A DNA stretch of 64,000 nt from positions 311,778 through 375,777 of the forward strand of contig JAXGPF010000005.1 in the NCBI GenBank assembly GCA_040767085.1, read 5' to 3'. The notes under the pieces are model-generated. The model was not told where the DNA came from and did no database searches. It saw only the letters and a program-made list of their open reading frames with translations. The DNA comes from Kiritimatiellia bacterium (GTDB taxonomy: Bacteria > Verrucomicrobiota > Kiritimatiellia > JAAZAB01). Each line of letters begins with the position of its first letter. Position 1 is the stretch's first letter. A program made the translations under genes and the position numbers. Shown here in pieces: positions 19,623 through 30,912 of this stretch.

Positions 19623-20408
19623 TCAAAGAACCGGATTGAGATGATATGGCGCAGGAGGCAAAACCGGCAGCGGCGCCCTATACCCATCGAAAGATCGTTT
19701 TAAAATAACACGTGATAACAGTAAAAGCGCGCGAACGTCGGCGGCGTTATATTTGAGCAATCGCGCAAGATTTGTTTTTTCATCCGGCATCGCCATATGG
19801 CGATGCCACAAGCAGGCGGCTTCCGCACCATCGCCATCTTCATCCGGCGCGCGCTTGATACCTAATTCATGCTCAATCTTCTTCAATCCACCGACATAAC
19901 CATAAACGCGAATTTCATGCATCAGATCAATGTGTGGTGGCGAACACTTTAGTCCGAAGAATTGCGCTATCACCGGCCAGTCAAAACGCATGCCATTAAA
20001 AGTTACCAATACTTCAATTTTACGTAATATTACGAGAAATTCGGATAAATTCATCCCCCGTATGAATTGCGACATCTGACCGGCTTGCCACAATCCAATC
20101 ACAGTTAAATCGTCATTAACACCAAGCCCAGTGGTTTCGATGTCCATAAAAGCCACTCCGGCGGCAAAGTCCGGCCATATTCGCATGCGGTGACCGGGCG
20201 GTAGCCTTTTGATAAAATAGTCCGCCACTCTTCCCGACAAAGCCGCTATTAATTCCGGCATTTGTTCAGTCAAATCCGCCGCCTTACGCGGCGAAAGGAC
20301 ATGTCCGGCAAGCGGCAGACAATCCCACGTCAGACATCCTGCTTGCCATAGGCGGCGCTCCGCCGCAGCGGAAATTCCCCGGAAACAACACAGGCTGCGC
20401 GTGAGCAT
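19623..20408 (-). CDS. RNase H-like / DEDD 3'-5' exonuclease (RNase_H_2/YprB-like), CRISPR-associated by position
   Basis: FMDIETTGL, VTFNGMRFDWP, HIDL, GGLKKIE..LGI.R, YNAADV; its ATG overlaps the cas2 stop (TGATG). Confidence 0.85.
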   Translation of the reverse strand: MLTRSLCCFRGISAAAERRLWQAGCLTWDCLPLAGHVLSPRKAADLTEQMPELIAALSGRVADYFIKRLPPGHRMRIWPDFAAGVAFMDIETTGLGVNDDLTVIGLWQAGQMSQFIRGMNLSEFLVILRKIEVLVTFNGMRFDWPVIAQFFGLKCSPPHIDLMHEIRVYGYVGGLKKIEHELGIKRAPDEDGDGAEAACLWHRHMAMPDEKTNLARLLKYNAADVRALLLLSRVILKRSFDGYRAPLPVLPPAPYHLNPVL

Positions 20409-20710
20409 CACTCGGTCTCCAGTTTTTCCGAATCAGCCCACGCTTCAGCCAGTAATTGGAGCCCAGACAATCGCACTTGCCGGCGCGGCGTGTCGCCAAA
20501 ACATTCAATGCTAAAACCTTGAGAGGTCCGCTCCGTACCGATGACCAGCATGCCTAGTCCAGGGGCATTCCGGCGAATATATTCCAAAGTTTTGGATCGA
20601 GTGCGAGTATTGACACTGCCAACAAACACATTTGGCCGGGGCTCAATGAACCAACGTTTAAGCATGCCCCGGATAGCCGGCGGAGTTTCGTTAGTTAGAA
20701 TAACGGTCAT
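20408..20710 (-). CDS. cas2: Type I-E Cas2
   Basis: TPPAIRGMLKRWFIEPRPNVFVG; follows cas1 with an ATGA overlap. Confidence 0.93.
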   Translation of the reverse strand: MTVILTNETPPAIRGMLKRWFIEPRPNVFVGSVNTRTRSKTLEYIRRNAPGLGMLVIGTERTSQGFSIECFGDTPRRQVRLSGLQLLAEAWADSEKLETE

Positions 20711-21546
20711 GCATCCTCAAAGAGGTTTTCAATGTCTTTCGGCATGCGTTGCAGAAGGCGGCGATCCTCGATATGGAATTTCAACCGTGTAATCACGTCG
20801 TCTTCTGTCGCATCCGGTTTCAGGCCGATGGTTTCGAAAGCCGCCGGCAAGGTAGTTTCCGGCTTATAAATATCGGCAATATCCAGAGCAAATGCCCGCA
20901 TGGAATTGGTGTGAATGAATCCCAGCGCCGGCAAATACCCCAGAGCATAAACCACTGAAGTCGTCAGCGCATAAAGCGCGGCATTAGCGGCGGAAACCGC
21001 GCGGTTGATGTTGTCGGCCAATTCCCAATTATTCGGGTTGTAATTGCGGCCTTTCCAAGTCACACCATATCGAACACCTAAATCAGCGTAAAGCGCCTTA
21101 ACACGGCGACCTTCCATCCCACGCAATTCTTTTATGGCGATACTTGAGACATCCACACCTGCGAAACGCAGACTGAACATGCGGCGCGCGACAATATCCC
21201 GCTTGCTTTTTGACACAGCGAGTTCCGCCTGACGCCGGGCACGCTCGTTGTCATGAGTTGGCGCAACGCCATGCGCATAAAAATGCGTTCCTTCTGTACC
21301 TACCCAACATACGGTTGTGTTGCATTCAGAACAGGCCTTTATAGCGGCATGGGTTACAGTAGTTCCCGGACCGAGCAACACCACGCTGAGCGAAGCCACC
21401 GGTAAGCGGAACACCGTGCGATCGGCGCCGATCCATTTCACGCTGGAGTCATCAACTTCAATGCGGCCATGTTCCAGGTAGATCGGCGTCCAGCATTCAC
21501 GTACCGGAGGAAGTGTTTCCAACGGCGGGCGCTCAAACACCGGCAT
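20707..21546 (-). CDS. cas1: Type I-E Cas1
   Basis: LLGPGTTVTHAA, LRGMEGRRV, WKGRNY, PALGFIHT, DIADIYK. Confidence 0.96.
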   Translation of the reverse strand: MPVFERPPLETLPPVRECWTPIYLEHGRIEVDDSSVKWIGADRTVFRLPVASLSVVLLGPGTTVTHAAIKACSECNTTVCWVGTEGTHFYAHGVAPTHDNERARRQAELAVSKSKRDIVARRMFSLRFAGVDVSSIAIKELRGMEGRRVKALYADLGVRYGVTWKGRNYNPNNWELADNINRAVSAANAALYALTTSVVYALGYLPALGFIHTNSMRAFALDIADIYKPETTLPAAFETIGLKPDATEDDVITRLKFHIEDRRLLQRMPKDIENLFEDA

Positions 21547-29695: not shown

Positions 29696-30888
29696 TACAC
29701 CCGCCGGGCGCCGTGTTTTTCCAGAATATTCGTAATCTTCCCGAGATCGGCGGCGTTTTTGACGTGGCGGCCGGCAATCAACACAAGATCCCAGATGCGC
29801 CCGTTGGGTGTCAGCACCCGCCGGGACGAGCCGGGCTCCTGGTTGGAATGCGCGGCGTAATATTTGCGGATGTCGTCATGCAACGCCTTTTCCAGGCTCG
29901 GCACAATTAGCCGCAATTCCAACAGCCGGATCAGGAACGCCTCGGCGGATACGCCGAACCGGTGCTTGATCCGATACAGTAACTCCGGCGTCCATTCGCC
30001 CGGGCGCAACCCCAACTGACGCACCGTCGCGCATACCGCCGATTCGGGCATGAGGAACAATCCCGCAAACCGCCGGGCCGCCCGCGCTGCCGTAAACAAC
30101 TTGCCGCGCCGGTCTTTGCCGACTTGCGGCCGCGGCAGATGCCGATAATAGGCCGGCGCATGCATATAAAGCCGTCCCAATTCGTAGGCCAACAGGTACA
30201 ACTGGCGTTCAGCGTTCAGCTTGACATCATCCAGGAAGATAAAAGCATTGGCATTTTTTATGTCATGGCAACTGATGCTCTCCACGCCGGGCGGCAGCCG
30301 GCAGAAAATCACCCGTAATCCGGCATTCTCGAACAATTCGAGATAATCGAAGATCACGGCGTCGCTGATGCCCAACAGACGCCGGACCTGCCCGCAAAGC
30401 CGCTGCAAACCCTCTTCCGTGCGGTCAGCCGCCAGCACCAACGGCAATTCGGCGGATTTGACGGCGTGGCTCATGTCTTCCAGCGCCAAAAAAGCGTCCG
30501 CCAGCTCGCTGGCCATCCCGCACAATTGATGCGGCAAACCGGCCAGTTCACGGCGGGTGCGGGCGGGTAAGGCGCAGGGACCATGCCAGAGTGGTTTTTC
30601 CGCAGCCACCATGTACGGTACGCCGGCTTCACGGGCAACCATGGCGTCCAAACCGCCAACAGGTCCATCCGCCGGCGGAGTAAAGAAAACATCCACCGGT
30701 TCGTCCAGGATTCGGGGAAGGGCGTGCAAAACACGGGCGCCAGGCAGATTGCGCCCTTTTTCGATGCAATTCAAAGGCCCTGGCCGCATGCCCAGCCGCG
30801 CCGCCAACTCGGCCTGACTGAGATGAGCGCGCAGGCGAACCGCGCGGATATTGGCGCCAACATGCTTTAACGAAGAATCTTTTGGCAT
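29695..30888 (-). CDS. XRE-family HTH fused to an ImmA/IrrE (peptidase M78)-like domain with degenerate HEXXH
   Basis: IRAVRLRAHLSQAELAARLGM...IEKG HTH; ERQLYLLAYELGRL; FAGLFLMP; HRFGVSAEAFLIRL. Start may be 30888 or 30900. Confidence 0.85.
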   Translation of the reverse strand: MPKDSSLKHVGANIRAVRLRAHLSQAELAARLGMRPGPLNCIEKGRNLPGARVLHALPRILDEPVDVFFTPPADGPVGGLDAMVAREAGVPYMVAAEKPLWHGPCALPARTRRELAGLPHQLCGMASELADAFLALEDMSHAVKSAELPLVLAADRTEEGLQRLCGQVRRLLGISDAVIFDYLELFENAGLRVIFCRLPPGVESISCHDIKNANAFIFLDDVKLNAERQLYLLAYELGRLYMHAPAYYRHLPRPQVGKDRRGKLFTAARAARRFAGLFLMPESAVCATVRQLGLRPGEWTPELLYRIKHRFGVSAEAFLIRLLELRLIVPSLEKALHDDIRKYYAAHSNQEPGSSRRVLTPNGRIWDLVLIAGRHVKNAADLGKITNILEKHGARRV

Positions 30889-30912
30889 GCCGAACATCAT
30901 GCATGTTTTTAT

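Follow-up and report, generated by a model that had tools for sequence, protein, structure and literature searches.

Three accessory genes with apparently separate histories in a type I-E CRISPR-Cas locus of a Kiritimatiellia bacterium

We analysed a stretch of 64,000 nucleotides (nt) of DNA, referred to in full as the window (contig JAXGPF010000005.1, positions 311,778 to 375,777 of the forward strand; assembly GCA_040767085.1), from a Kiritimatiellia bacterium, in which a type I-E CRISPR-Cas operon occupies positions 19623-30900. In addition to its cas genes, this operon carries three accessory genes: a regulator with an XRE-type helix-turn-helix (HTH) and a Peptidase_M78 domain (XRE-M78), a gene for a protein with HEAT repeats, a zinc ribbon and a predicted PD-(D/E)xK nuclease domain (the HEAT gene), and a YprB-like exonuclease of the DEDDy type (EXO). 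A preliminary description of this DNA had taken the three for built-in parts of an undescribed I-E variant that was acquired as one module. Comparison with relatives favours a different account, to which we assign a probability of roughly 0.7: the locus is a complete type I-E system assembled as a mosaic of known kinds of parts, not a new CRISPR subtype, and its three accessory genes have separate histories and presumably separate roles. The I-E core is ordinary, and the set of add-on genes is recurrent but mosaic.

Relatives were collected around two anchors. A scan anchored on the HEAT gene gave 33 loci, mostly from metagenome-assembled genomes (MAGs) titled Verrucomicrobiota, Lentisphaerae or Kiritimatiellia, together with some Desulfobacterota. 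A second set, unbiased with respect to the extra genes, was anchored on Cas7e in 400 other genomes of the phylum, 42 of which had a match at E ≤ 1e-20; it returned 29 loci, of which 20 were extended to 10-20 kb. Each of the three genes recurs beside cas genes in these relatives, and none is therefore a one-off. Their occurrences are nevertheless uncoupled, which runs counter to a single module: EXO is found without the HEAT gene (L071, L087), the HEAT gene without EXO (L080), and XRE-M78 without either (L083). On a tree of Cas1 sequences (24 rows), a kind of check that the preliminary description had proposed, EXO requires at most two changes and the HEAT gene five. The HEAT gene, moreover, is not a feature of I-E systems as such, as it also sits in I-C and I-G operons and at orphan sites, and its own tree mixes these contexts almost as shuffled labels would.

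Gene content and order of the locus

The features of the locus and its immediate surroundings are as follows, with lengths in amino acids (aa).

29695..30900, minus strand: XRE-M78 regulator, 401 aa; Pfam HTH_31/HTH_3 and Peptidase_M78; stop overlaps the cas3 start by 1 nt
27089..29695, minus strand: cas3 (HD nuclease and helicase), 868 aa; Pfam Cas3_HD, DEAD and Cas3-like_C_2 (PF18019, PF00270, PF22590); PADLOC Cas3e 1.3e-166
25543..27105, minus strand: cas8e (cse1), 520 aa; PF09481 4.6e-61; TIGR02547 142.6 bits, cut-off 70
25016..25546, minus strand: cas11 (cse2), 176 aa; PF09485 3.9e-16; TIGR02548 55.1 bits, cut-off 28.5
24405..25019, minus strand: cas6e, 204 aa; PF08798 1.6e-42; TIGR01907 above cut-off
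23442..24350 (alternative GTG start 24365), minus strand: HEAT/zinc-ribbon/PD-(D/E)xK gene, 302 aa; PADLOC PDLC01150; Pfam HEAT_2
22229..23380, minus strand: cas7e, 383 aa; PF09344 2.2e-97; TIGR01869 271.9 bits, cut-off 178
21550..22236, minus strand: cas5e, 228 aa; PF09704; TIGR01868 above cut-off
20707..21546, minus strand: cas1e, 279 aa; TIGR03638 308.5 bits, cut-off 215.6
20408..20710, minus strand: cas2e, 100 aa; PF09707; TIGR01873
19623..20411, minus strand: YprB-like DEDDy 3'-5' exonuclease of the RNase-H fold (EXO), 261-262 aa; PF13482 97.6 bits, cut-off 22; overlaps cas2 by 4 nt
16897..19556, minus strand: type I-E CRISPR array, repeat GTTTTCCCCACGCCCGTGGGGATGGTCC on the minus strand; downstream of cas2
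16588..16685, plus strand: relic type I-C repeats; a degenerate copy, followed about 66 nt later by an exact 33-mer (16653-16685)
30919..32187 (element about 30,9xx-32,45x), minus strand: ISL3-family transposase; PF01610 1.1e-60; NF033550

The gene order and the coordinates 19623-30900 given in the preliminary description agree with the positions of the open reading frames (ORFs), which are all intact and all on the minus strand. The core is complete as claimed, with 8/8 I-E genes at full length (Pfam, NCBIfam and PADLOC): each matches curated I-E families of Pfam and/or NCBIfam above the cut-off and along almost the whole protein, and in PADLOC they carry the names Cas3e, Cas8e, Cas11e, Cas6e, Cas7e, Cas5e, Cas1e and Cas2e. 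The genes were also rightly called mostly overlapping. In operon order the junctions measure -1, -17, -4, -4, +54 (cas6e to HEAT), +61 (HEAT to cas7), -8, +3, -4 and -4 nt; that is, they lie between -17 and +3 nt except on the two sides of the HEAT gene. The AT-richness noticed at the outset is likewise real, with a GC content of 0.536 for 19623-30900 versus 0.622 for positions 1-16500 and 0.630 for 32400-64000. It is unevenly shared, however: the genes from cas3 to EXO have GC contents of 0.49-0.56, versus a flank-like 0.601 for the regulator gene. A promoter and terminator scan of 19400-32600 returned fewer sites than shuffled sequences (7 versus a mean of 11.6, and 14 versus 18.7), and we made no use of it. 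Gene content, linkage patterns, folds and conserved residues were observed directly; what we say of function is, for every gene of the locus, a prediction from sequence.

Compared to the type I-E system of E. coli K-12, the locus has the same eight core genes, an I-E-type repeat with a 61-nt unit and an array downstream of cas2, and it differs in its three extra genes and in having cas6e before cas7 rather than after cas5. This order had been put forward as a distinctive trait. The difference from E. coli stands, but the distinctiveness does not, as cas6e lies upstream of cas7 in 28/29 Cas7e-anchored loci, the remaining one (L067) having no cas6e match. It is the norm in the I-E branch of the Planctomycetes-Verrucomicrobia-Chlamydiae (PVC) lineage.

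Histories of the exonuclease, the regulator and the HEAT gene

EXO is stably linked to the adaptation genes. The original call of a DEDD exonuclease holds, as 18 aligned homologues all share D89, E91, D143, Y220 and D224; the invariant Exo motifs comprise D89/E91 (DxE), N138/F142/D143 (NxxxFD) and Y220/D224 (YxxxD, which reads YNxxD). Because the Exo III motif is YxxxD and not HxxxxD, EXO is of the DEDDy type rather than the DnaQ-like DEDDh type. Its homologues are named "YprB with RNaseH-like and TPR domain" in their sources, and the PADLOC DEDDh model matches EXO only at 6.8e-4 over part of the protein, with no stretch passing. EXO and cas2 are separate ORFs with no fusion between them. EXO directly follows cas2 in 8/19 assessable Cas7-anchored loci and in all six HEAT-anchored I-E loci that reach past cas2. 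When the loci are sorted by the identity of their Cas1 to that of the window, it is present in 13/13 at 68% or more and in 0/11 below. The Cas1 tree tells the same story: its 13 EXO-bearing rows could go back to a single change, and 11 of them fall in one clade with 95% support in the Shimodaira-Hasegawa-like approximate likelihood ratio test (SH-aLRT). These patterns show that EXO belongs stably to the adaptation module in a single clade of Cas1.

In other I-E systems, prespacers are trimmed by host DnaQ/ExoT or by a DEDDh domain fused to Cas2, and another study of a Cas2/DEDDh I-E system is reportedly that of Drabavicius in 2018. By analogy, EXO is probably a prespacer trimmer: translationally coupled to cas2, it would trim the 3' overhangs of prespacers held by Cas1-Cas2. 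According to the accessible part of the work on the Cas2/DEDDh trimmer-integrase, the fusion trims prespacers in an I-E system, host exonucleases act on I-E prespacers in trans, and the authors expect unfused exonucleases to act like the fused one (Wang 2023, PMC10284694). As far as that part of the paper goes, both systems tie a DEDD-superfamily 3'-5' exonuclease to Cas4-less I-E adaptation, while EXO differs in being a separate gene, in belonging to PF13482 and in being DEDDy rather than DEDDh. A separate observation concerns L006 (13005-14063), where cas1 is cut to its first 26 codons and tblastn finds no cas2 match; a 352-aa PF13482 protein (36% identity) comes immediately afterwards, and then a regular array. 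The adaptation module of that locus may be in decay, or a fusion.

The regulator has a different past. It combines an HTH domain (PF13560/PF01381) with Peptidase_M78 (PF06114, 36.8 bits versus a cut-off of 22), and PADLOC matches it to RmrA (3.5e-19) and capP (1e-7). At the position of the HExxH motif it reads YELGR, and the canonical motif is absent from the window regulator and from all 31 homologous stretches, making the protein a predicted pseudo-peptidase. Homologues occur in 25/400 other genomes, all of the same class, and adjoin cas genes in 11/27 loci, where the neighbouring system varies: I-E cas3 in L090, L092, L099 and L111, type I-C in L091, L097, L098, L100, L101 and L114, and I-F cas1 in L093. 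Two of the Cas7-anchored loci have XRE-M78 upstream of cas3, L083 on the same strand and L087 in divergent orientation.

Two genomes of the same genus are informative on what stands behind the regulator. In G320, the syntenic site holds XRE-M78 (87% identity) followed by cas3e and cas8e, and a second contig runs from cas8e to EXO with the HEAT gene included, such that all three extra genes are present across two contigs. In G221, XRE-M78 (82%; DNA 82.6%) is instead followed, in this order, by a HEAT gene (57%), cas3c, cas5c, cas8c, cas7c, cas4, cas1, cas2 and an I-C array. The window itself contains relic I-C repeats directly past the trailer of its I-E array; their 33-mer (one match, zero expected) is nearly identical to the repeat of the G221 I-C array (L117), and there are no I-C cas genes within the 64-kb window. 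Taken together, the host-like GC content of the regulator, the presence of either I-E or I-C genes behind it within the genus and the relic I-C repeats suggest that an I-E cassette took the place of an earlier I-C cassette behind a regulator already resident there. Judged from its sequence and setting, the regulator is resident and predates the I-E cassette at this site. The earlier proposal of a horizontally acquired module is thus upheld in part: the block from cas3 to EXO looks acquired, given its low GC content, the relic I-C repeats and the I-C genes behind the orthologous regulator in G221, but neither a joint three-gene module nor the inclusion of the regulator is borne out.

The role of XRE-M78 is presumably regulatory. 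By analogy with known regulators, it probably represses the operon and would release it upon a stress or phage cue sensed through its sensor-like pseudo-peptidase domain. In CapH/CapP, ImmR/ImmA and DdrO/IrrE, too, an immune operon is headed by an HTH and a domain of the M78 family; the accessible part of that report describes fused CapH-CapP for 15 cyclic oligonucleotide-based antiphage signalling systems (CBASS) and for DISARM, and makes no mention of an association of such regulators with CRISPR-Cas (Lau 2022, 10.1101/2022.04.27.489752). In these sources, so far as accessible, CapH/CapP-type regulators respond to single-stranded DNA or DNA damage, upon which the repressor is cleaved (Lau 2022, 10.1101/2022.04.27.489752; PMC13228613). 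The window regulator differs in having YELGR for HExxH and in being co-oriented with, and overlapping, cas3, whereas those regulators are described as divergent (Lau 2022). An ISL3 element lies 18 nt upstream of the regulator start codon and is absent from the syntenic site of G320 (L118); its insertion may have displaced the native promoter of the operon.

The third gene, in contrast to EXO, is mobile. Its protein begins at Met-6 of the ORF (the sixth codon), as in the recorded identical protein P0004. The domain composition given in the preliminary description is correct, comprising Pfam HEAT at residues 40-120, two CxxC pairs and, in the C-terminal domain, a predicted Vsr-like PD-(D/E)xK fold, but calling the gene undescribed was too strong, as PADLOC-DB already holds a HEAT_CxxC_PD-DEXK profile. 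In an alignment of 28 sequences, C135, C138, C159 and C162 (the two CxxC pairs) are nearly invariant, and E196, D227, E238 and K255 of the nuclease domain are invariant and are thus the predicted catalytic residues. The AlphaFold2 (AF2) model has a predicted local distance difference test score (pLDDT) of 85 for the whole protein and of 82 for the C-terminal domain folded alone. The latter was modelled by itself because a fold search with the whole protein gave only HEAT/alphaRep matches, at residues 1-130. The C-terminal model matches the homing endonuclease I-Bth0305I (3r3p_B; VIA Z 9.0, root-mean-square deviation 3.1, 91 aligned), Vsr (1cw0_A, 8.6), VRR_NUC (7.6), DUF559 (3hrl, 7.5) and TnsA (7.3). 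Foldseek matches to the same model were weak (best E 0.037), a C-terminal profile found no PDB sequence at E ≤ 1, and the nearest named clusters in the ESM Atlas, which we treat as a lead only, are DUF559 (scores 0.85-0.88). The domain is accordingly predicted to adopt a PD-(D/E)xK, Vsr/DUF559-like fold, and the model suggests that the gene probably encodes an active DNA endonuclease.

The 33 HEAT-anchored loci fall into the following contexts; among the I-C loci, L015 was assigned by PADLOC and the others by ORF clusters in common with L015.

In I-E, between cas6e and cas7: 8 loci (L001, L002, L004, L006, L007, L018, L024, L028)
In I-C: 7 loci (L005, L010, L013, L015, L017, L019, L021)
In I-G: 1 locus (L014)
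Without a cas gene within 6 kb: 10 loci (L003, L008, L009, L016, L020, L023, L025, L026, L027, L031)
At a contig end: 1 locus (L011)
Contig too short to judge: 5 loci (L012, L022, L029, L030, L032)
Nuclease-domain relative only, beside a type III restriction gene: 1 locus (L033)

In the 20 extended Cas7-anchored loci, the HEAT gene lies between cas6e and cas7 in four (L069, L070 as a fragment, L072, L081), between cas8e and cas11 in three (L079 as fragments, L080, L084) and upstream of cas3 in one (L073), and it is missing in 12. In every cas-linked locus, it is co-oriented with the cas genes. Its tree (37 rows) requires 20 context changes, where the minimum is 8 and the mean for shuffled labels is 22.2, and the supported sister pairs join an I-E or I-C copy with an orphan copy. 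The HEAT gene is therefore a portable plug-in that moves among I-E, I-C and I-G operons and non-cas sites and is often lost again. One such loss is preserved in G350 (L073 8955-9143), where the gap between cas6e and cas7 holds a 3' remnant of the HEAT gene that shares 93.8% identity across 192 nt with the copy of L072, from the same genus. With a short GCGCGAAACG-like repeat at the junction, this gap is a deletion scar. The same genome has a second, divergent copy (67% identity) upstream of cas3 (L073 2433-3227). In G160, a RhuM-family gene occupies the slot between cas6e and cas7 (L074 5512-6393), which seems to be an insertion hotspot. The random cargo that the preliminary description had set against its own view thus applies in part: one relative carries an unrelated gene in the HEAT slot, and close relatives have no HEAT gene there or only a deletion scar, yet the three genes do recur.

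We note additional small genes in these neighbourhoods. In a Geothermobacter I-C locus, cas7c and the HEAT gene are separated by a Bro-N/PDC-S13-type gene (L015 9462-10004), and PDC-S05/PDC-S13 candidates follow XRE-M78 homologues in L095 and L096 (including L096 3222-3725). Both kinds of gene are further small cargo travelling with these modules.

How the HEAT gene relates to CRISPR-Cas immunity is the weakest link of our account, and its role is predicted rather than observed. The HEAT domain would dock on a partner that is not specific to the subtype, and the nuclease might either help Cas3 in interference or priming or serve as a defence nuclease in its own right. In an alternative that we consider unlikely though deserving of serious weight, the gene would be mobile and selfish or free-standing, resembling a homing endonuclease or forming a defence of one gene, and would lodge in cas operons and defence islands with no functional tie to CRISPR-Cas. 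This would account for context switches about as frequent as with shuffled labels and for orphan copies standing among housekeeping genes, for example gcpE, rseP, recA/cinA, lon and smc. The nuclease domain has a homing endonuclease as its best fold match and is very widespread (7184 representatives of the zinc-ribbon and nuclease profile at E ≤ 1e-3). Within the operon, the HEAT gene is the sole one with intergenic spacers on both sides, and scars or fragments of it are seen in L070, L073 and L079. Genomes with orphan copies can also be counted on this side, as a Cas3 core scores above the cut-off in 4/9 of them and not in the other five, a weak argument given MAGs of unstated completeness. 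On the other hand, 16/33 HEAT-anchored loci are inside type I cas operons, which make up well under 1% of a genome, the orientation is always that of the operon, and the cas contexts seen are type I (Cas3-bearing) subtypes only. G350 has lost its copy between cas6e and cas7 and nevertheless has another upstream of cas3, the curators of a cas profile set keep a dedicated HEAT profile, and there is no common DNA target in I-E and I-C operons for a homing enzyme.

The three histories can be drawn into a joint functional reading, which is speculative and, taken as a whole, rather doubtful. The HEAT gene would be a subtype-agnostic plug-in nuclease of Cas3-based type I immunity, EXO a dedicated trimmer of a Cas4-less I-E clade, and the XRE pseudo-peptidase a new sensor-repressor gating whichever type I cassette sits behind it. 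In such a scheme, the HEAT domain would dock either on a factor of host or phage or on some conserved feature of DNA that Cas3 has processed, and the nuclease would cut what Cas3 leaves behind, leading to stronger interference or feeding primed adaptation.

CRISPR array and flanking repeats

The I-E array contains 38 core repeats, with only 6/37 repeat-to-repeat intervals of 60-62 nt. Four of these six regular intervals are at the trailer end, where five units are regular, and one is next to the leader. In the irregular part, spacer lengths range from 0 to more than 100 nt, with some spacers truncated and some repeats incomplete. The cas region is present in 20 public runs from eight studies (sludge, landfill, digester and biofilm metagenomes), and four runs from two studies yield array contigs; these are repeat-spacer-repeat pieces of 85-91 nt that confirm the trailer units and carry many spacers absent from the window. 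None of the four runs (Logan contigs) covers several bins of the irregular part, which we do not take as evidence. A population that is mixed in its leader-end spacers would be garbled by consensus assembly, and the scrambling is probably such an artefact.

It is improbable, by comparison, that the irregular array is real, whether as a decaying array or as the product of aberrant integration by a Cas1-Cas2-EXO module. In favour are the given sequence itself, with its partial repeats and aberrant spacer lengths, and the matching of some irregular stretches by short contigs in public runs. However, it is the leader end that is irregular and the trailer end that is regular, the reverse of ordinary decay, and relatives with the same repeat and EXO have arrays that are regular at 61 nt (L069, L072 with two exceptions, L073 and L071). 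The many other spacers in the repeat-spacer-repeat contigs likewise indicate a mixed population.

Beyond the array, positions 15652-16162 of the window hold a cluster of short, hairpin-type GGGGCGAAAGATTTTTCGCCC-like repeats with 27/45-nt periods, and elements of 60 nt that resemble them, on the other flank, have dozens of matches across genomes of the same genus. These look like dispersed repeats of the repetitive extragenic palindrome (REP) or miniature inverted-repeat transposable element (MITE) kind.

Known relatives of the locus and its significance

The 2025 classification, in its accessible part, lists I-E2 (with a Cas5-HNH), I-E3 (with a PD-(D/E)xK nuclease fused to Cas11, role "to be determined") and I-E5 (Makarova 2025, PMC12669027), and as far as these are described there, the window locus is none of them. 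The closest parallel in that part of the paper is I-E3, likewise a Cas3-bearing I-E system with an extra PD-(D/E)xK nuclease, and in relatives L079, L080 and L084 the HEAT gene lies directly upstream of cas11. In the window, by contrast, Cas11 is a separate protein of 176 aa, and the nuclease is encoded two genes downstream and has HEAT repeats and a zinc ribbon, which sets it apart from I-E3 as described. A Cas11 fusion within the HEAT family was considered and rejected, as we found no Cse2/Cas11 Pfam domain in 23 scanned proteins, chosen mainly for extra length from the 150 listed out of 7184 representatives. PADLOC gave no Cas11 on eight proteins (seven of them from the 23), the long C-terminal tails of P0245 and P0251 gave nothing against Cas11 (BLAST for P0245; hhalign for both, probability below 1%), and P0245 gave nothing against Cas7. 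The window HEAT protein is instead the same kind as the cas-ancillary entry PDLC01150 (HEAT_CxxC_PDDEXK) of PADLOC-DB, which it matches at full length (E 3.1e-125, 286/288 profile positions) with no sequence difference to set it apart.

Our literature search, which did not extend to supplements or to two key papers, turned up nothing about the HEAT family or what it does and nothing about cas-linked YprB-like exonucleases. For ImmA/XRE regulators in cas operons, there was nothing relevant among the matches listed, and the preprint version of Shmakov 2018 does not mention HEAT.

Several points weigh against our account of the locus. The samples are mostly MAG contigs, and the two anchor sets share at least one contig (L001 and L081 agree in length and in hit coordinates). 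As the EXO linkage possibly goes back to a single ancestral gain, it counts as one event and not as 13. HEAT proteins that are more than 80% identical are found in I-E and I-C operons, whose Cas proteins differ, which argues against a specific Cas partner, and 10 or 11 copies stand among housekeeping genes, such that the data do not require a CRISPR link. The CapP/ImmA mechanism depends on HExxH, which is missing from the regulator, and the regulator gene is co-oriented, not divergent. Finally, with an array that is scrambled over most of its length and an ISL3 element so close to the regulator start, the locus could be silenced or decaying.

The view of the preliminary description, in which the three genes form one co-adapted I-E variant that was acquired together and works as a unit, is very improbable: the genes do lie in one co-oriented, tightly packed operon, and G320 of the same genus has the same three alongside its I-E system, but they occur independently in relatives, the host-like regulator heads an I-C operon in the same genus too, and the HEAT gene, with five changes on the tree of Cas1, is found in three I-E slots as well as in other subtypes.

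Although the locus is not a new subtype, as a mosaic it offers three testable points. If EXO is a trimmer, it extends the trimmer-integrase idea beyond Cas2/DEDDh fusions to an unfused DEDDy, YprB-like family. The HEAT gene hops between I-E, I-C and I-G systems at 60-90% identity, and its role could explain the repeated recruitment of PD-(D/E)xK nucleases by Cas3-bearing systems. The swap from I-C to I-E behind a retained pseudo-peptidase regulator would be a clean in-situ exchange of modules, and it points to a regulator family for type I systems. Were the joint functional reading of the three genes true, type I loci would be built from interchangeable regulator, effector-helper and adaptation-helper cartridges.

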